Under the pieces are notes generated by a model that was not told the origin of the DNA, did not search any database, and was given only the letters and a program-made list of their open reading frames with translations. 24,000 nucleotides of DNA from a bacterium sp. HQB-39. Its GTDB lineage: Bacteria; Pseudomonadota; Gammaproteobacteria; Enterobacterales; Vibrionaceae. This document shows, one piece after another, positions 1,572-11,283 of the stretch (positions are counted from its first letter, which is position 1; every line of letters begins with the position of its first letter). The DNA is taken from NCBI GenBank assembly GCA_043422575.1, contig JBHOHG010000010.1, forward strand, positions 105,919-129,918, given 5' to 3'. Position numbers and translations under genes: made by a program.

Positions 1572-1669
1572 TTCCTTCCTTTCGCACAAGGTGACTGCGT
1601 GTCACAAACATCTTCAACTCACCCTTCGACGTCACGTCTTACGTCCAGCCTCATTTGAGGAGCATTGCT

Positions 1670-3538
1670 ATGTCTGATTCCATTACGTCTAACTCCAACA
1701 CATCTAACTCCAACACACAAACGACGCGAGAGAATGATGAATCTCAGCCGAAACTTACTCGTCAACAAATCTATGACCGTGTTCGCCAAAGCAGTAAAGA
1801 TGAATACATACTGCAAGAAATGGTCAGGCTCGGCTTTTGGGAGCATGATGAAGAAAAGCCAACTTTAGCGCAGGAGTTTGTGCAACGTCGGAGCGAACTC
1901 AACAGTAAGATTCGTGAACTGAGCAAACTTGATGAGATATATTCTGATCCGGATAAAGCGCTTGAAGCGATGCGCAAGGAACGTAAAAAAGCGGCGCTGA
2001 TTAAGCGAGAAGAGACCAAACAAGCACGTAATCAATCACGCTATCAAAGAGCACTGCAGTGGTTCGAAAAACAGAAGTATCAAATTACGTGGTTAGGCGA
2101 GCATGTATCACAAGGACTGGGGAAGCAAGAGTGCGATGAAACCCGCCTAGATAGACAGCAAATTCCAGTGTTTCATAAAGCGGAACACTTGGCACAAGCA
2201 ATGGGCATAAGTGTGCCAGAATTGCGATTCTTAGCTTTTCAAAAAGAAGTGTCGAAAGTCTCTCATTATCAAAAATTCACCATCCCAAAGAAGACGGGAG
2301 CGCCACGATCTATTTCGGCGCCTATGCCTCGTTTAAAACGAGCTCAGTACTGGATTTTAGAGAACATATTGAATGAAGTGACCATTCATGGTGCCGCTCA
2401 TGGCTTCGTGCCAAAGAGAAACATCGTCACGAATGCGGAGCTTCATGTAGGTAAAGAAGTTGTGATCAACATGGATCTTAAAGACTTCTTTCCGAGCATA
2501 AGCTATCGCCGAGTGAAAGGGGTTTTCCGTGGTTTTGGCTACAGCGAAGAAATTGCGACCATACTCGGATTGTTGACGACGGAACAAGACACGCAGAAGG
2601 TCGAGATGGACGGGGATACTTGGCATGTTGCCACAGGAGAGCGTCGATTACCTCAAGGAGCACCATCCAGCCCTGCGATAACGAATGTGTTATGTAATCG
2701 TCTTGATTCTAGATTACAAGGCATGGTGAACAGTCTCGGCTTTGAGTACACTCGCTATGCGGATGATCTTACTTTCTCAGGAAACGACCCTAAAAAGGTT
2801 CAAGCGCTGTTATGGCGAGTCAAGCAAATCGTCGCTGACGAAGGGTTTACTCTCCACCCTGATAAAACCAGAGTGATGCGTCGACATCAGAAGCAGGAGG
2901 TGACTGGCGTCGTCGTTAATGACAAGATCTCGATTGATCGTAAAACCTTGAAGCGATTCCGAGCGACGTTACATCAGATTGAGAAAGATGGTCCAGAAGG
3001 AAAGGTGTGGGGAGCTGGTGAACTGTTCCAGTCTCTGCAGGGGTATGCTCAGTTTGTTTCAATGGTAAATACCGTTAAAGGTGTGCCATTAGAGAAAAAG
3101 GTAATCGATCTCAAGCGTAAATATGGCATATCGACCAAGCCGGGGCGCATCACCGAGTTAAATAAGCGATTATTCCGAGAAAAGGCGGCGCAAGGGGAGG
3201 CGCCAAGAGGTGACTGGTGGCAACCTGAAGAGAAATCAGCTCCCGAGCTAGAGTTGACCGCGCAGCAAAAAGCGGAACAGAAAAAGCGTGAAAAACACAA
3301 TGCTCGATACAGCGAAACACCGACCAGCGATGAATCAAGCAGTGAAGTGCAGACAGAAACGGTGGTCGACGCCGAATCACAAGATTCAACCAAAGAGGAT
3401 AAAGAGGAAGTCGGACCGTTTATATATATTCTGGCTATCGTGTTCTCTCCGTTAATTCTCTTTCTTTTCCTTTTATACCGTTTTCCTACAGCGACGATCT
3501 TAATGCTGATTCTAGGATTTATCATTTTTGGCGATTAA
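1670..3538 (+). CDS. Retron-type reverse transcriptase with an approximately 190-aa N-terminal charged extension and a C-terminal acidic linker plus two hydrophobic helices
   Basis: ATG at 1670 with GAGGAG 8 nt upstream; the ORF-track TTG start at 1655 is less likely. Motifs: NAELH (NAxxH) at 2432-2446, MDLKDFFPSI, RYADDLTFS (YADD at 2756-2767), and QEVTGVVVN (VTG at 2900-2908). The C-terminus FIYILAIVFSPLILFLFLLYRFPTATILMLILGFIIFGD is strongly hydrophobic. Confidence 0.9.
   Translation: MSDSITSNSNTSNSNTQTTRENDESQPKLTRQQIYDRVRQSSKDEYILQEMVRLGFWEHDEEKPTLAQEFVQRRSELNSKIRELSKLDEIYSDPDKALEAMRKERKKAALIKREETKQARNQSRYQRALQWFEKQKYQITWLGEHVSQGLGKQECDETRLDRQQIPVFHKAEHLAQAMGISVPELRFLAFQKEVSKVSHYQKFTIPKKTGAPRSISAPMPRLKRAQYWILENILNEVTIHGAAHGFVPKRNIVTNAELHVGKEVVINMDLKDFFPSISYRRVKGVFRGFGYSEEIATILGLLTTEQDTQKVEMDGDTWHVATGERRLPQGAPSSPAITNVLCNRLDSRLQGMVNSLGFEYTRYADDLTFSGNDPKKVQALLWRVKQIVADEGFTLHPDKTRVMRRHQKQEVTGVVVNDKISIDRKTLKRFRATLHQIEKDGPEGKVWGAGELFQSLQGYAQFVSMVNTVKGVPLEKKVIDLKRKYGISTKPGRITELNKRLFREKAAQGEAPRGDWWQPEEKSAPELELTAQQKAEQKKREKHNARYSETPTSDESSSEVQTETVVDAESQDSTKEDKEEVGPFIYILAIVFSPLILFLFLLYRFPTATILMLILGFIIFGD
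1688..1717 (+). repeat. Perfect 15-nt tandem duplication TCTAACTCCAACACA x2, encoding SNSNT x2 in the RT N-terminus
   Basis: Read directly: 1688-1702 is identical to 1703-1717. Confidence 0.95.
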
Positions 3539-3585
3539 CTGAACATCACTGATGGCAGGTGTGAATCATTCTGTGCGTTGTATTC

Positions 3586-3613
3586 TACCCAGTGTTTGCG
3601 ACGATACTGGGTA
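3586..3613 (+). other. 8-bp hairpin (TACCCAGT ... ACTGGGTA) between the RT and GNAT genes; a member of the ACCCA(A)G/C(T)TGGGT hairpin family
   Basis: Perfect inverted repeat 3586-3593 / 3606-3613 with a 12-nt loop. There is no T-run, so it is not a classic intrinsic terminator. Confidence 0.5.
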
Positions 3614-3628
3614 TCATTGAGGGGTTTT

Positions 3629-4153
3629 ATGTTGTACGTGTTTTCAGAACCAGTTCGAATGGAAATCGAGAGCTTGCCTATATCATTACTCATGGAAGCG
3701 GAGCCCTGTGAGTTATCTATCCAGCAATACCCACCGCATGCTGAAGCTATCGCAGTGTTTGCTCGTGAAGAAGGGTTGATCAATCAACGTGTGGCAGGCT
3801 GTTTAGTATGGGCAGAAGTTCAAACTGAACGTGATGTAAAGGTAGTGGAAATCTTAAATTTATCTGTTTTTGAGCACTATCAAGAACAAGGAATTGGCTC
3901 CAAATTGCTTGAGAATGTAATTCGTGTTCTCTCTAAGCAGGGAGTTGATGAAATCGTTCTTTCAACGGGAACGTTTGGATACCAACTTGCCTTTTATCAA
4001 AGATTTGGGTTTCGGGTTGTTGAAGTACAGAAGGATCACTTTATTGAGAAATACCCCCAAGCAATTTTCGAACATGGAATACGTCATAAAGATGCTCTAA
4101 AGCTTTCTCTCACGCTTGACTTGGAATATACCCAAGTAACCTCGAGATGCTAG
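3629..4153 (+). CDS. GNAT family N-acetyltransferase
   Basis: Acetyl-CoA binding motif QEQGIGSKLLENV and a C-terminal YQRFGFR motif. ATG at 3629 follows GAGGGG; the ORF-track start at 3578 lacks a Shine-Dalgarno sequence. The last 8 codons and the stop codon lie inside repeat copy 1. Confidence 0.8.
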   Translation: MLYVFSEPVRMEIESLPISLLMEAEPCELSIQQYPPHAEAIAVFAREEGLINQRVAGCLVWAEVQTERDVKVVEILNLSVFEHYQEQGIGSKLLENVIRVLSKQGVDEIVLSTGTFGYQLAFYQRFGFRVVEVQKDHFIEKYPQAIFEHGIRHKDALKLSLTLDLEYTQVTSRC

Positions 4154-5866: not shown

Positions 5867-7471
5867 TTATTTTACTTGCGGAACATCACTCCATTTCAAT
5901 CCAAATTTGGTCAGGTACTTTTGCAAGCGGCTGGTGTCATTGTGAGCGGACTTTTGTGTCCGAGAATACTGGAATAATTCGCGACCTGTTGCGGCCATGG
6001 AGTCATGTTGACTGGCGACATTCAGTACATAATTGAGCTGGTGGGCATCAAAATTATCTAACTGATCTAGCTGTTCATCATCGAAAACCGACTTTAAATG
6101 CTCCATTGAGTGTGTGCTTGGCTCATCACACTGCCAAGAAGCCTTTAAGCGAAGGATCTCTTGGTCTACATCCTGTAAAGTAATCCTAGAAGAGTCGGCA
6201 AGGGTACACATACGAGTGATCGCTGAACTTAAATCGCGAAAGTTTCCTGTCCAGAGTGCTGATGGGGATGAGGAAAAAGTAAGGAAACGCTGTTTTGCTT
6301 CCTTATTAAATTGAATTCGTCGTTCAGTTTTCTGTGTGTATTGATCAAGTTCAAAATCGATGTTGGCCGGAATATCTTCTTTTCGTTCTTTTAACGCTGG
6401 TAATTTATATGTCCATAAATTAATTCTGGCTAACAGATCGCCTCTGAAGTTACCCAATTGAACTTCGCGTTTTAAATCTCGGTTGGTTCCTGCGATCAAC
6501 TGAAAGTCACTGCTGACAGCGGTATCGCTTCCGACTGGATGGAAGGATTTACTTTCAATTGCGTGCAGTAACATCGCTTGTTCTTCTAGTCCTAGTTCAC
6601 CAATCTCATCTAAAAACAGTACACCCTGATTGGCAGTCAGTAAAAAGCCATCTCTCGACTTCAATGCCCCTGTGAACGCGCCTTTGGTGTGCCCGAAGAG
6701 CGCAGCCATTGCATTTTCCCCTTTCAAAGTGGCGCAGTTGACAGACACCAAGCTTCCCGAGACCATGCTGCGCTTTTTTTTGAGCTGGTAGATCCGAGTT
6801 GCTAGCTGGCTTTTACCGGCACCGGTTGGGCCGGTCAGTAGCATAGGGTCACGAGAGCGGATCGCGACCTTTTCTAATTGGGTGATCAGTTGGTTGAAAT
6901 GACGATTTTTGGTCGCGATGCCATTTTTAAGAAAAGTGGTGCCCTCTGAGTGTTCCTTGTCAAATCGTGTTGCAAGCTGATCATATTTTGATAAATCGAG
7001 ATCGATGATCTGAACGGTGCCGATTGAGCGGTTTTCTTGATGGCTATCGGGCGATGTTTGAATTAACCGCCCTGGAAAATGGCGACTTTCAGTCAATAGA
7101 TAAGCGCAGATCTGTACCACGTGTGTCCCGGTTGTAATGTGAAACAAGTAATCATTCTGCTCGGTATCGAAATGTTGCTGCTTACACCAATCAAATAATT
7201 TGGCATACACCTCCTCAAAATCCCATGGATTGTCAAAGTCAATGGGGTGACGAACCACTTCGGTTTCAGGGGATATTGTTTCGATATCGACAGCAATGTT
7301 ATGGGCGAGTCGCCCCGATGGATGACCATGGAGCAAATGCATGGTATCAATTTGCAAGTCTTCTTGACTGCACAAGCCAACATTAGGTCGCCATCTATCC
7401 CAACGCTTTTTCCCTCGCCCGACACGATCCAGTTGTGTTCCCAGTAAACTCACGACAATCGTTGATTTCAT
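5867..7471 (-). CDS. rtcR: RtcR, a sigma54-dependent transcriptional activator with an N-terminal CARF-type sensor domain
   Basis: The N-terminus MKSTIVVSLLGTQLDRVGRGKKRWDRWRPNVGLC resembles E. coli RtcR. AAA+ Walker A LLTGPTGAGKSQLA and the GAFTGA motif (TKGAFTGAL) are present. The gene is divergent from rtcBA. Confidence 0.93.
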   Translation of the reverse strand: MKSTIVVSLLGTQLDRVGRGKKRWDRWRPNVGLCSQEDLQIDTMHLLHGHPSGRLAHNIAVDIETISPETEVVRHPIDFDNPWDFEEVYAKLFDWCKQQHFDTEQNDYLFHITTGTHVVQICAYLLTESRHFPGRLIQTSPDSHQENRSIGTVQIIDLDLSKYDQLATRFDKEHSEGTTFLKNGIATKNRHFNQLITQLEKVAIRSRDPMLLTGPTGAGKSQLATRIYQLKKKRSMVSGSLVSVNCATLKGENAMAALFGHTKGAFTGALKSRDGFLLTANQGVLFLDEIGELGLEEQAMLLHAIESKSFHPVGSDTAVSSDFQLIAGTNRDLKREVQLGNFRGDLLARINLWTYKLPALKERKEDIPANIDFELDQYTQKTERRIQFNKEAKQRFLTFSSSPSALWTGNFRDLSSAITRMCTLADSSRITLQDVDQEILRLKASWQCDEPSTHSMEHLKSVFDDEQLDQLDNFDAHQLNYVLNVASQHDSMAATGRELFQYSRTQKSAHNDTSRLQKYLTKFGLKWSDVPQVK

Positions 7472-7620
7472 GTTGTATCCATATAGATAGTTTGACTATC
7501 CATATGTATATCTTTTTATGAATTGAAAATAAACCATCCAGATAAATAAAATGATTAAAATTTAATTTAAGTGTTAAATATCAATTGTTTATGCTTTGTT
7601 TTGGTGTTGTTTTTTATAAC

Positions 7621-7636
7621 TGGCACAAGGATTGTA
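7621..7636 (+). promoter_or_regulatory. Candidate sigma54 (-24/-12) promoter of the rtcBA operon
   Basis: TGGCAC-AAGGA-TTGT matches TGGCAC-N5-TTGC, except that the -12 element is GT rather than GC. It is correctly oriented and placed between rtcR and rtcB. Confidence 0.55.
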
Positions 7637-7774
7637 ATAGAGGAAGGGTCAAGTGATGTTAGCGGTGATTCTGAATGTCACGTTGGTGCACTGAGCTATG
7701 CAGATGTGTATGCCTTCACTTGTCACGCCAATCCATAGAGGGAAGGAAACTTCAAGGGTGCAAATCCCTAATTT

Positions 7775-7845
7775 GGCACCGAAACTCAATGGTAGAGCAC
7801 TGAAAATCAACTTCAGTTGTTGTGGGTTCGAATCCCACCAAAAAA
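7775..7845 (+). ncRNA. tRNA-like element in the rtcBA leader (D-arm, anticodon-like arm and T-arm, but no acceptor stem); possibly a Y-RNA/YrlA-like module
   Basis: D-arm-like CTCAATGGTAGAG at 7785-7797. Hairpin CTGAA-AATCAAC-TTCAG at 7800-7816. Canonical T-arm GTGGG-TTCGAAT-CCCAC at 7822-7838. The flanking 7-mers GGCACCG and CAAAAAA cannot pair. A second T-arm-like hairpin, AGGG-TGCAAAT-CCCT, lies at 7755-7769. Confidence 0.5.
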
Positions 7846-7967
7846 CATGGATAAATGAAAAACAAAGGTTATATAGCGAGCCAAGCCAAGGTTCAATAAA
7901 CCTCAACCCTGAACAGTAATCAGCGAGCAGTAAAAGTGAATCGCTGAAAAGTTAACGATGGCTAGGG

Positions 7968-8013
7968 GTGTCGTGAGAGGAACAATAATGATCAACTCAA
8001 CCTCTCACGACAC
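7968..8013 (+). promoter_or_regulatory. Perfect 13-bp stem / 20-nt loop hairpin immediately upstream of the rtcB RBS
   Basis: GTGTCGTGAGAGG (7968-7980) pairs with CCTCTCACGACAC (8001-8013). There is no T-run, and the rtcB RBS AAGGAAAG follows about 10 nt later. Confidence 0.6.
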
Positions 8014-8033
8014 GCCAATTTAAGGAAAGAAAG

Positions 8034-9257
8034 ATGTGTCAGAAATTTAATTTAATTGAAAACCCAGGCAACACACCGATCAAAGCATGGACGCAAGGTG
8101 TGCCATTTGAAAACAAAGCACAAGAGCAGGTGAAAAACATCGCCAAGATGCCATTTATTCACTCACACGTCGCTATTATGCCCGATGTTCATTTAGGTAA
8201 AGGAGCCACAATCGGCAGTGTGATCCCATCGGTCAATGCGGTGATCCCAGCCGCTGTCGGGGTAGATATAGGTTGTGGTATGGTCGCGACCAAAACCTCA
8301 TTAAGTGCGAGTCAGTTGCCAGATAATTTATCCGCCATCCGTTCCGCGTTTGAAGCCGCTATTCCACATGGGCGTAGCAGCTCTAGAGCCAAAGTCGATC
8401 GTGGTTCATGGGGAAACATCCCTGAATTGGTCGCGGGTGAATGGCAAAAGCTAGAACAGCGTTTCAAGCGTATTTGCGAGAAACACCCCGCGATTGCCAA
8501 GTCAAATCATGTTGTCCATTTAGGTACTATGGGTACGGGTAATCACTTCTTGGAGCTCTGTCTGGATGAGAATGATGCTGTCTGGATCATGCTGCATTCA
8601 GGGAGTCGTGGTGTCGGTAACCGGATTGGGACCTATTTTATTTCGTTGGCAAGAAAAGAGATGGAGCGTCATCAACGTCAGTTGCCAGACCTTGATCTTG
8701 CCTACCTTGAAGAGGGCAGCGACTACTTTGACGACTACGTAGAGGCAGTAGAGTGGGCACAAGATTTTGCCGCGAAAAACCGTGAAATCATGATGTTTAA
8801 TGCGATTAAGGCTCTGCGTGAACAAATGCCTGTAGAGTTCACAACCATGGATGTCGCTGTGAACTGCCATCACAACTATATCTCCCGAGAAAAGCATTTT
8901 GGAAAAGAGTGCTACGTGACTCGAAAAGGTGCCGTGAGAGCTGAGAAAGGGGAACTCGGGATCATTCCGGGTAGCATGGGAGCGCGTTCCTTTATTGTTC
9001 GAGGCTTAGGCAATCCTGAAAGCTTCAACAGTTGCAGTCACGGTGCTGGTCGAGTTATGTCACGAACACAGGCGAAGAAAGTGTTTAACGTGAAAGATCA
9101 AGAAGCAGCGACGCAAGGGGTTGAGTGTCGAAAAGACCAAGGGGTTATTGACGAGATCCCCCATGCCTATAAAGACATTGAAAAAGTCATGGAGGCTCAA
9201 AGTGATTTGGTCGAAGTGGTGCACACCCTAAAGCAAGTGGTCTGTGTGAAAGGCTAG
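8034..9257 (+). CDS. rtcB: RNA-splicing ligase RtcB (3'-phosphate/5'-hydroxyl RNA ligase)
   Basis: RtcB hallmarks are present: IMPDVHLGKG, VGVDIGCGM, GTGNHFLE, HSGSRGVGN, NCHHNY, GSMG and SCSHGAGR. A good RBS precedes the start. Confidence 0.95.
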   Translation: MCQKFNLIENPGNTPIKAWTQGVPFENKAQEQVKNIAKMPFIHSHVAIMPDVHLGKGATIGSVIPSVNAVIPAAVGVDIGCGMVATKTSLSASQLPDNLSAIRSAFEAAIPHGRSSSRAKVDRGSWGNIPELVAGEWQKLEQRFKRICEKHPAIAKSNHVVHLGTMGTGNHFLELCLDENDAVWIMLHSGSRGVGNRIGTYFISLARKEMERHQRQLPDLDLAYLEEGSDYFDDYVEAVEWAQDFAAKNREIMMFNAIKALREQMPVEFTTMDVAVNCHHNYISREKHFGKECYVTRKGAVRAEKGELGIIPGSMGARSFIVRGLGNPESFNSCSHGAGRVMSRTQAKKVFNVKDQEAATQGVECRKDQGVIDEIPHAYKDIEKVMEAQSDLVEVVHTLKQVVCVKG

Positions 9258-9317: not shown

Positions 9318-10487
9318 ATGATCACCATAGATGGCTCATTGGGAGAAGGTGGAGGGCAGATCCTTAGGACGTCGTTGACTCTGGCGATGCTGACCCAACA
9401 GTCGATAGAAATCGTTAATATTCGAGCTGGGCGTAAAAAGCCCGGTTTACTTCGCCAACATTTAACTTGTGTATTAGCAGCTCAGGCGATTTGCCAAGCC
9501 GAAGTACAAGGCGCGGAACTGGGTTCGCAGCATGTGGTGTTTCGTCCTCAAGCGGTAAGAGCGGGAGAATATCGTTTTGCCATCTCGGGCGCTGGCAGTA
9601 CCGCTTTGGTTTGCCAAACCGTGTTTCCGGCACTGGCGGTGGCTGAGGGGGAGTCGATGGTGACCTTCATCGGGGGGACACATAATGGTTTATCACCCTC
9701 TGTGGATTTCTTGCAAAAATCGTATTTCCCGATTTGGCATGAAATGGGTGTCGTGACGGCAATGACGATGCAAAAAATTGGCTTTAATCCGGCTGGAGGA
9801 GGGGAGTGGCAACTTAGGATCACACCAGCACAGACGCTAAAGGCTTTCAATTATACAGAGCGAAAGGCTTTTGATTACACAGAACAAAAGGCTTTCGAAC
9901 TCACGGGGAAAAAGGAGTGTGATCTCGGAGCTTTACAGCTCAAAACAGGCCCTACTCTATGGCAAGACAAAGTTCAAATTAATGTATTAATCAGCGGTAT
10001 TGAGCACAAAGTGGCGCAAAGAGAGGTCGCTGAGGCGATACGATATTGTCGCCTTGATGCGCACACCATTAATAACAACGTGGTAATTAAAGGGGTCAAC
10101 AGTGCGTGCGCAGGCAATAGCTTCCAAATGAGTTACTTACTCGACCACAACCATGCCGTATTCGAAATGGTCGGTGAAGTACGTGTATCTGCTGAAAAAG
10201 TGGCGCGAAGAGCGGCTGGGCGATTTAACAAGTGGGTAAACAGCGGAGCGGCAGTGGAAGAGTACTTGGCGGATCAACTCTTGATTCCGATGTGGATGGC
10301 AGGAGAAGGGCGTTTTTCCACCACCCAACCTAGCCTTCATTGCCAAACGAATATGCAAGTGATTAAAGCCATTACTGGCTGCGAGTTTTATGTCACGCCA
10401 ATCGGAGTGGATAAGCAACAGTGGTTGGTAAGAATTAAGGGAGAGAAGGGTGAAGCAAGCAGTCATAAACCCAAGAGTGATACCTGA
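9318..10487 (+). CDS. rtcA: RNA 3'-terminal phosphate cyclase RtcA, with an internal repeat-containing insertion
   Basis: The N-terminus IDGSLGEGGGQILRTSLTLAML is typical of RtcA. The protein is 389 aa, compared with about 338 aa for E. coli RtcA from memory. It lies downstream of rtcB. Confidence 0.93.
   Translation: MITIDGSLGEGGGQILRTSLTLAMLTQQSIEIVNIRAGRKKPGLLRQHLTCVLAAQAICQAEVQGAELGSQHVVFRPQAVRAGEYRFAISGAGSTALVCQTVFPALAVAEGESMVTFIGGTHNGLSPSVDFLQKSYFPIWHEMGVVTAMTMQKIGFNPAGGGEWQLRITPAQTLKAFNYTERKAFDYTEQKAFELTGKKECDLGALQLKTGPTLWQDKVQINVLISGIEHKVAQREVAEAIRYCRLDAHTINNNVVIKGVNSACAGNSFQMSYLLDHNHAVFEMVGEVRVSAEKVARRAAGRFNKWVNSGAAVEEYLADQLLIPMWMAGEGRFSTTQPSLHCQTNMQVIKAITGCEFYVTPIGVDKQQWLVRIKGEKGEASSHKPKSDT
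9840..9911 (+). repeat. In-frame 24-nt tandem repeat x3 inside rtcA (KAFNYTER / KAFDYTEQ / KAFELTGK)
   Basis: Units at 9840-9863, 9864-9887 and 9888-9911, read directly. The units are imperfect copies. Confidence 0.9.
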
Positions 10488-11283
10488 TTCAGTCAGATCA
10501 GAAATTTTACGACGTATTTCTGCCGCTGAACAAGAACATAATGTGAAGGTACTGTTTGCGATCGAATCCGGCAGCCGAGCGTGGGGATTTGAAAGCGCTA
10601 ACAGTGATTTCGATGTGCGTTTCGTCTATATCCATGAAAAAGACTGGTATCTCACTATTGATGTCGAAGAAAAACGTGATGTGATTGAATATCCGATCAC
10701 AGATGAAATCGACATCAATGGCTGGGAATTACGTAAGGCATTAAAATTATTTCGAAAATCGAACCCAGCCATCCTTGAGTGGATTCAATCACCGATTGTG
10801 TATCGCGATGATGGCTTGACGATGACAAGCTTGAGAGACCTCATTAGCTTAGTGGCTGATCCGCGAAAGGCGGGGTATCATTATTTTCATATGGCCCGCA
10901 ACAATTTTCGAGAATACCTGAAAAAAGAACAGGTACCACTGAAGAAATATTTTTATGTGTTGCGCCCTTTATTAGCCATTCGGTGGTTAGAAGCCCATCA
11001 ATCGCAGCCTCCGATTGAATTCGACACCTTATGCGAACTCATCGTTGATCAAGTTGATTTAAAAGATGCCATCGATGAGCTGTTGGTACGTAAGCGTGCA
11101 GCAACAGAAAAAGAAATGATATACAGCGTGCCTGTGATCAATGACTTTATTGCTTCTGAGTTAGCGCGTAACGGCGACAGTGATGATTTGCAGTTCATAA
11201 AATTACTCATGAAACGCGCACAACACGATCACACGCCGCGACTCAATCACGTCTTTCAACAATGCTTGGAAAACGAAATTTGA
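10450..11283 (+). CDS. Pol-beta-superfamily nucleotidyltransferase (RlaP-like, RNA-ligase-associated)
   Basis: Motif ESGSRAWGFESANSDFDVRFVY, i.e. the GS...D.D minimal NTase signature. GTG start at 10450 follows GGAGAGAAGG and overlaps the rtcA 3' end by 38 nt. From memory this matches the PF10127-type family linked to RtcB. Confidence 0.85.
   Translation: MKQAVINPRVIPDSVRSEILRRISAAEQEHNVKVLFAIESGSRAWGFESANSDFDVRFVYIHEKDWYLTIDVEEKRDVIEYPITDEIDINGWELRKALKLFRKSNPAILEWIQSPIVYRDDGLTMTSLRDLISLVADPRKAGYHYFHMARNNFREYLKKEQVPLKKYFYVLRPLLAIRWLEAHQSQPPIEFDTLCELIVDQVDLKDAIDELLVRKRAATEKEMIYSVPVINDFIASELARNGDSDDLQFIKLLMKRAQHDHTPRLNHVFQQCLENEI

Follow-up and report, generated by a model that had tools for sequence, protein, structure and literature searches.

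Why does the leader of a bacterial RNA-repair operon contain a sequence that reads as most of a tRNA? This question is raised by the region between rtcR and rtcB in bacterium sp. HQB-39 (Vibrionaceae), which was analyzed here within a stretch of 24,000 nucleotides (nt) (contig JBHOHG010000010.1, positions 105,919–129,918), referred to below as the window. RNA-repair operons can carry tRNA mimics, such as YrlA with Ro60 or the predicted Band-7-associated tRNA-like RNA (b7a-tRNA) with a Band-7 protein. In the window the element is located inside the 562-nt rtcR-rtcB gap, and there is little doubt that it is a unit of the b7a type. Taken as a whole, the element is probably an orphaned and partly eroded b7a-tRNA leader remnant of an RtcR/sigma54-controlled RNA-repair operon; a slight preference can be given to the view that the unit is vestigial rather than still working.

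The tRNA-like unit occupies positions 7781..7839 of the forward strand and begins 145 nt 3′ of a sigma54 −24/−12 motif (TGGCAC-N5-TTGT; 7621..7636, forward strand, with the letters themselves at 7621–7635). It is composed of a D-arm that can be read in the sequence (CTC-AATGGTA-GAG; 7785–7797), an anticodon-like arm (7799–7817) with the stem CUGAA/UUCAG (plus the pair A7799-U7817) and the 7-nt loop AAUCAAC, the variable loop UUGUU, and a T-arm (GTGGG-TTCGAAT-CCCAC; 7822–7838), all on the forward strand. A second T-arm-like hairpin, AGGG-TGCAAAT-CCCT, is present on the same strand at 7755–7769. The arms, the anticodon-like stem and loop, the second hairpin and the sigma54 motif were all found where the original prediction, made from the letters alone, had located them. 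The Rfam tRNA model (RF00005) matched 7781–7839 with 30.5 bits, against a gathering score of 29 (E 0.0087, calculated over the whole window), which upholds the earlier description of a tRNA-like element without an acceptor stem in the sigma54/RtcR-driven leader of rtcB, rtcA and a nucleotidyltransferase gene (rlaP). The match spans model positions 7–64 of 71, so the acceptor stem is unmatched; 1/7 acceptor pairs, 3/4 D-stem pairs, 5/5 anticodon-like pairs and 5/5 T-stem pairs are formed, and the unit carries A8, A10·C25 and A33. No tRNA was called at the element by ARAGORN. A covariance model of related units (R2) gave 58 bits over 7775–7846, the window sequence being among its 25 training sequences. 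Since this score is accompanied by homologous units at the same leader position in related loci, the resemblance to tRNA exceeds what chance would give.

The closest homologs of the window RtcB (80–84% identical; the next-best sequence, among the matches listed, is 84% identical) are encoded by Paraglaciecola, three Vibrio (the loci compared were those of Vibrio sp. Of7-15, V. aerogenes and V. neptunius), Motilimonas, Alteromonas, Pseudoalteromonas and Shewanella. All of these nearest loci have one arrangement: rtcR on the minus strand, a gap of 550–670 nt, a Band_7 gene encoding 384–390 amino acids (aa), and rtcB. In Aliikangiella (RtcB 76%) the order is leader-Band_7-rlaP-rtcB, and in three gammaproteobacterial loci it is rtcB-rtcA-RNA-Band_7. 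One to three tRNA-like genes (Rfam tRNA, 45–59 bits) lie directly 5′ of Band_7 in the related loci, and homologs of the window unit were identified at the same place in 28/28 readable related rtc loci. The leader of a complete cassette thus reads, in order, sigma54 promoter, 5′ three-way-junction module, one to three tRNA-like units, a rod hairpin of ~135 nt, the Band-7/SPFH gene and rtcB, and the same sigma54 motif is found in the relatives ~22 nt 5′ of the 5′ module. The absence of a Ro60 gene had been stressed originally; since the homologous units adjoin Band-7, the partner that is missing is Band-7 and not Ro60.

The tRNA-like units fall into three types. Type A units have the acceptor AUUAAG/CUUAAU and type B units AUUUAAG/CUUAAAU, while type C, the last unit of the leader, is recognized by the anticodon-like stem UCGAA/UUCGA, the variable loop UUGUU and the T-stem GUGGG. 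The window unit is the ortholog of type C: UUGUU and GUGGGUUCRANUCCCACC are common to it and to the type C units of 18 loci, and its anticodon-like stem CUGAA/UUCAG differs from that of the relatives by two fully compensated pair changes. Covariation supports the cloverleaf of the family (43 distinct sequences), in which 92.6% of cells are paired and 18/21 pairs show changes on both sides. Loss of the arms from orthologous leaders had been envisaged as an outcome that would speak against a meaningful element; the leader comparison gave the opposite result, the arms being conserved. The absence of an acceptor stem and the A at position 33, to which attention had been drawn as peculiarities, are indeed present, but they are partly ordinary for orthologous last units. 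The acceptor is formed by 6–7/7 pairs in A/B units and by only 4–6/7 in C units (2/7 in Motilimonas), the 5′ strand of the type C acceptor shares nucleotides with the 3′ end of the unit before it, and the anticodon-like loops throughout are short or variable, without a conserved U33, position 33 being usually not U. Both peculiarities are thus in part shared with the last units of the relatives and in part the product of additional erosion in this genome.

The second recognizable part of the cassette in the window is the 5′ module, which is intact (7643..7727, forward strand; 69 bits with the model R1). In the family this module is ~80 nt long: P1 is the closing stem of the junction, P2, a hairpin of 4 base pairs (bp), has a UUCNNAANN loop, and P3 consists of GG plus 5 bp with a UR bulge. 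Among 26 distinct sequences, 95.7% of cells are paired and 12/17 pairs have changed on both sides, compared to 25–49% paired cells in slid controls. In the window, P1 (7650–7656/7716–7722, CAAGUGA/UCACUUG), P2 (7665–7668/7678–7681, loop UUCUGAAUG) and P3 (7685–7691/7706–7714, UG bulge) are all formed on the forward strand. The 26 sequences include, for example, those of loci L081 (2279–2362) and L089 (2220–2303). R1 also recovered the module in two loci that had not been used for its training, L004 and L005, where it precedes the tRNA-like units. Rfam 15 contains no family matching either the 5′ module or the rod.

The rod, defined as an accompanying feature of the cassette in this analysis, follows the tRNA-like units and precedes the start of Band-7. 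It comprises ~135 nt with 43 predicted pairs, 29 of which show compensatory changes, and the conserved apex GGCAAGCNGGAUGCUCCCC. Its model, R3, recovered the rod in 19 Band-7 loci, some of them outside the training set, with 77–137 bits (L081 2590–2726, L098 3291–3427 and 17 others). Searched with the filters off, R3 found nothing comparable in the window, where the best hit reached 6.4 bits (E 0.24) against the 77–137 bits of the 19 relatives. The remainder of the leader at the position of the relatives' rod (7847..7964, forward strand) retains a faint similarity to the 5′ strand, while the apex and 3′ strand are absent: in a MAFFT alignment 11/19 conserved columns were matched in the 5′ half and 8/22 in the apex plus 3′ half. 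The hairpins present between the window unit and rtcB are unrelated to the cassette structures.

The generality of the Band-7 link was examined with a hidden Markov model (HMM) built from 12 cassette Band-7 proteins and a survey of 80 diverse rtcB loci from species-representative genomes; roughly 110 rtc loci were examined overall. The HMM detected the gene in all close relatives and in 10/80 diverse loci, and in 9/10 of these Band-7-positive diverse loci a tRNA-like unit was present upstream. The exception is Pseudomonas entomophila (L037), whose locus encodes a cassette-type Band_7 (2597–3964) with no detectable tRNA-like unit; a GC-rich structure resembling P2/P3 of the 5′ module was observed at 2440–2503 of this locus, with an R1 score of only 5.6 bits. 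A DNA pattern for the 5′ module, run against metagenomes, picked out 23 contigs, 20 of which were real according to R1 (55–98 bits). Band_7 followed by rtcB was found in 19/19 of the real loci with a readable downstream region, the 20th (L106) being cut off. The rtcB loci that lack Band-7 often carry YrlA instead (Rfam, 72–78 bits in seven loci). The window is the only one among the roughly 110 rtc loci that has b7a-type RNA modules and no Band-7.

No Band-7 gene was detected in the 24-kilobase (kb) window by Pfam, tblastn or the 12-protein HMM. Several candidate traces of a former gene were also rejected. A Band-7 pseudogene was sought with tblastn of four Band-7 proteins, which gave only noise (best E 0.057). 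A deletion scar was looked for by Smith-Waterman comparison of 7920–8033 with the 3′ ends of the Band-7 genes and the Band-7-rtcB spacers of the relatives, and the scores were no better than those of shuffles; the 8-mer GTAAAAGT, common to the window and the Band-7 end of V. neptunius, is not significant.

The upstream tRNA-like units are likewise missing. A possible relic, for which the evidence is weak, was noted at 7727..7777 (forward strand), including the stem GCCAA/UUGGC, the hairpin GAAG-GAAA-CUUC and the T-arm-like hairpin described above. Folded alone, this segment has a small cloverleaf as its minimum free energy (MFE) structure (z −1.9), and R2 picked up only its T-arm part (6.3 bits, E 0.09); in the fold of the whole leader, a competing hairpin, GGUGCAAA/UUUGGCACC, replaces this structure. 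Units A and B have been lost from the window, and at most this weakly supported mini-relic is left.

The unit that has been retained is the most eroded of the 44 units compared: besides the acceptor loss, the G10-C25 pair is broken, which is the case for no other unit among the 43 distinct sequences, and U8 has changed to A. It matches 39/50 family-conserved columns, the lowest value (other units, 0.83–1.00), and its D-arm lies outside the MFE fold, unlike that of Motilimonas or Alteromonas (L085, L089). Loss of the acceptor alone does not indicate decay, because the acceptor-less unit of Motilimonas coexists with Band-7; it is the unique changes at U8 and G10, together with complete acceptor loss, that favor relaxed constraint on the tRNA-like unit.

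These observations can be combined in the following model. In the complete cassette, the RNA and the Band-7 protein would be partners in a ribonucleoprotein comparable to that of Y RNA and Ro60, in line with a published prediction. The rod would be the probable protein-docking part, and because it has been lost together with Band-7 (in a single case) it may be the part specific for Band-7. The tRNA-shaped domains could present the repair enzymes, or nucleases that cleave tRNA, with a surface resembling tRNA. In the window, the remnants (the 5′ module, the doubtful mini-unit and the last unit) would be transcribed from the sigma54 promoter upon RtcR activation, as the 5′ untranslated region of rtcB-rtcA-rlaP. 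A ribonucleoprotein with Band-7 could not form here in the absence of both rod and Band-7, so the tRNA-like unit would most likely be vestigial. At most, it might form a structured leader with the intact 5′ module.

Several observations weigh against this reading. The 5′ module of the window retains 20/20 of the columns conserved in the other members, and in the unit the T-arm, the anticodon-like stem, the GG of the D-loop and the A15:U48 combination are intact; the intact core and module could mean that selection continues. The last unit of Motilimonas has an acceptor of only 2/7 pairs, and Band-7 has been kept there. The residual 5′ half of the rod is as diverged in V. aerogenes (0.57) and Aliikangiella (0.60), both of which keep Band-7, as in the window (0.58). 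A Band-7 gene could also be located outside the 24-kb window, and the partnership of Band-7 with the RNA is itself a prediction from the literature and not an established fact.

An attempt to date the loss by differential decay failed, the 5′ half of the window rod being no more diverged than in the two lineages with Band-7. A single further copy of the locus is available (L086); it does not differ at any of 7,471 nt and thus shows no polymorphism. No similar DNA was found in plasmid and phage collections. Since the loss cannot be dated, no scar is visible and the sole other copy is identical, the intactness of the 5′ module and core fits either a recent deletion or continued selection.

The alternative that survives best is that the 5′ module and the acceptor-less core are functional without Band-7, either in cis, by controlling the stability, processing or translation of the rtcB mRNA, or, by virtue of a tRNA shape, as a decoy for, sensor for or cofactor of RtcB, RtcA, RlaP, the CARF domain of RtcR or a tRNA nuclease. 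Such a role is possible, though on present evidence rather doubtful. It would account for the invariant columns of the module and for its P1, whose 7 bp are perfectly paired and, being lineage-specific, unlike those of every relative in sequence; the D-loop and variable loop of the unit are preserved along with its T- and anticodon-like arms. The presence of the 5′ module in cassettes that do not adjoin a promoter (L004, L005) also suggests a role at the RNA level. Moreover, the orthologous last units of all relatives have a weak acceptor and share nucleotides with the 3′ end of the unit before them, for which reason they may never be freed as tRNA-like RNAs. Against a role of this kind, the window unit has changed at the otherwise invariant U8 and G10 and is the most diverged member, and a 5′ module or b7a unit without Band-7 occurs nowhere else in the rtc loci surveyed.

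A related and more speculative proposal, tentatively put forward, is that the window represents a natural separation-of-function allele: the rod would go with Band-7, while the 5′ junction and the acceptor-less tRNA “elbow” would constitute an autonomous RtcR-induced RNA, acting without the scaffold on the repair enzymes, the CARF domain of RtcR or tRNA nucleases. If this rather improbable proposal were correct, the b7a “tRNA” would be one domain of a multi-domain RNA of roughly 400 nt.

The preferred interpretation, that of an orphaned b7a leader, also has to be set against a second rival, namely that the element is a Y RNA of the YrlA type whose Ro60 (Rsr) partner is encoded in another part of the genome. 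There is a precedent in the rsr-yrlBA-rtcBA operon of Salmonella (PMC4201824, PMC7790460), the T-arm-like hairpin at 7755–7769 precedes the D-arm, which is the order found in YrlA, and according to a 2018 preprint (bioRxiv 10.1101/312249) b7a-tRNA is occasionally found beside Rsr. However, neither YrlA (RF02553) nor any other Rfam family besides tRNA matched 7450–8100 at E≤10, compared to 72–78 bits for YrlA in the seven rtc loci that served as positive controls. The arms of the element are arranged in the canonical D-anticodon-T order, no long 5′/3′ terminal stem is present, and the homology leads to units linked with Band-7. As had been noted, no rsr is located nearby: no TROVE/Rsr protein is encoded by the window ORFs (open reading frames) of at least 150 aa. 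YrlA and Rsr are thus not the relevant relatives, and this explanation is regarded as very improbable.

Scarcely credible is the last possibility, that a housekeeping tRNA gene has decayed here, that the resemblance is fortuitous or that the element belongs to the small ORF 7698–7919, since, even though the Rfam score is just above the threshold of 29 and an ATG-started 73-aa ORF overlaps the element, homologous units with cloverleaf covariation occupy the same leader position, similarity of the translation is limited to the tRNA-like nucleotides and is equal for an ORF on the opposite strand, and the frames are not kept (longest stop-free stretch of 34–73 aa in the relatives) and have no Pfam match. 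Small proteins from the ORFs 7698–7919 (+) and 7649–7906 (−) were therefore ruled out, as was a canonical tRNA or tmRNA (ARAGORN negative). The suspicion that the segment might be a decayed remnant was correct in one respect: a remnant it appears to be, of a b7a cassette and not of a housekeeping tRNA gene.

Gene rtcR (5867..7471, − strand), transcribed divergently, encodes a sigma54 activator with an RtcR/CARF N-terminal domain (Pfam RtcR, 3.9e-80; Sigma54_activat, 2.2e-45). On the forward strand it faces rtcB (8034–9257; Pfam RtcB, 1.2e-129), rtcA (9318–10487; Pfam RTC, 7.5e-73) and rlaP (10450–11283; RlaP nucleotidyltransferase, Pfam RlaP, 3.4e-87). The TGGCAC-N5-TTGT motif has a single match in 24 kb, against 0.08 expected. 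Judging from the divergent rtcR, with its CARF-like N-domain and AAA+ sigma54-interaction domain, and from the predicted −24/−12 promoter, the locus is an RtcR/sigma54-regulated rtc operon. Two copies of the repeat TATCCATAT(A/G), 21 nt apart, adjoin the rtcR start codon (7476–7489 and 7497–7510). The same repeats, of the form TATCCA..AGATA / TATCCAT, occur at this site in the intergenic regions of all relatives, and the TATCCATAT(A/G) copies are probably the upstream activating sequence of RtcR, i.e. its putative binding sites.

Between the unit and rtcB, an exceptionally stable hairpin of 13+2 bp with a 20-nt loop was identified at 7965..8016 (forward strand; −28.8 kcal/mol, z −7.3). It is unique within the window, its 3′ end lies 5 nt before the ribosome-binding site of rtcB, and it is not followed by a U-tract; no terminator or attenuator was found in the leader. 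Hairpins are also located within the Band-7-rtcB spacer of Alteromonas and Shewanella.

The window RtcA (389 aa), whose gene overlaps the rlaP start by 38 nt, is 45–49% identical to the RtcA proteins of the relatives in full-length alignments; the corresponding values are 80–84% for RtcB, 67–76% for RtcR and 61–68% for RlaP. The divergence of RtcA suggests that the rtc operon may have been remodelled in this lineage. Further upstream, the window encodes a 627-aa reverse transcriptase (1655–3538, +; RVT_1, 1.2e-26), which may be of a defence type or retron-like, and 5′ of it lies a 419-aa ORF (5–1264, +) without a Pfam match.

Several additional features were observed in the other rtc loci. In V. 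aerogenes (L084, 3429–3923), a second, short ORF of 164 aa is located between Band-7 and rtcB; it gave a weak match to the cassette Band-7 HMM (3.4e-25) and belongs to no Pfam family. In Pseudoalteromonas (L091/L092, 6274–7530), a gene with PolyA_pol and HD domains, resembling a CCA-adding enzyme, is inserted between rtcA and rlaP. Near the RtcR-controlled operon, L087 (8591–9227) and L089 (6309–8116) encode another RtcB, which is paired with a PrfH-like gene of the RF-1 family; within the stretch of L091 that was analyzed (8692–9227), the RF-1-family gene alone is present. Arrays of tRNA genes occur beside rtcB in metagenome-assembled genomes of Blastocatellia (27 genes; L047, 697–3957), Planctomycetota (13 genes; L061, 6892–8600) and Pseudomonadota (5 genes; L062, 993–1609), the last of which has an extra b7a-like unit (2410–2482) just before Band-7.

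With this analysis, a predicted b7a RNA gains a concrete anatomy (a 5′ junction module, units A, B and C, and a rod). This multi-domain architecture, resolved here and supported by covariation part by part, appears to be new, as do the orphaned acceptor-less state and the joint loss of rod and Band-7. The window locus hints at which part of the RNA docks Band-7, and it allows the question to be asked whether a tRNA-shaped RNA can act on RtcB, RtcA, RlaP or RtcR without the help of a scaffold. Should the remnant simply be decaying, the locus documents how a cassette is lost and little beyond that.

The class of element to which the window unit is assigned is not new. According to the summary given by Wang et al. 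(bioRxiv 10.1101/312249), b7a-tRNA was predicted by Burroughs and Aravind (2016) as a non-coding RNA beside RtcB and a Band-7 protein, without experimental validation, and was occasionally found beside Rsr. The window element resembles it in being located in an RtcB operon and in having tRNA-like D, anticodon and T arms, in its direct sequence and structure homology to units placed directly 5′ of Band-7 in about 30 loci, and in sharing the sigma54 promoter and 5′ module of the cassette. It differs in that the Band-7 gene, the rod hairpin and the acceptor stem are absent, U8 and G10 are changed, and one recognizable unit is present compared to up to three in the relatives.

Canonical tRNA genes provide a further point of comparison: the D-loop and T-loop sequences of the window element are those of a textbook tRNA, and the arrays of 5–27 real-looking tRNA genes beside rtcB in some distant loci constitute a similar neighborhood. 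In contrast to such genes, the element is not callable as a tRNA, its acceptor is reduced to a single pair and its anticodon-like loop is not conserved and lacks U33.

With YrlA/Rsr, known from the RtcR-controlled rsr-yrlBA-rtcBA operon of Salmonella (PMC4201824, PMC7790460), the element shares the character of a non-coding RNA that mimics tRNA, is expressed along with RtcB under the control of RtcR and is the presumed partner of a scaffold protein. It has been speculated by Hughes et al. (PMC7790460) that the tRNA-shaped domain of YrlA engages tRNA-binding enzymes or nucleases. The window differs from this system in having no match to YrlA (RF02553), an arm order that is canonical and not permuted, no evident Ro-binding terminal stem in its fold and no rsr nearby. 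In one of the relatives (L081), the YrlA model gave sub-threshold matches of 30 bits (gathering score 69) at 2393–2466 and 2471–2533, each reaching from the T-arm of a unit into the D-arm of the unit that follows, a hint that tandem b7a units and YrlA, with its permuted tRNA-like domain, may be evolutionarily related.

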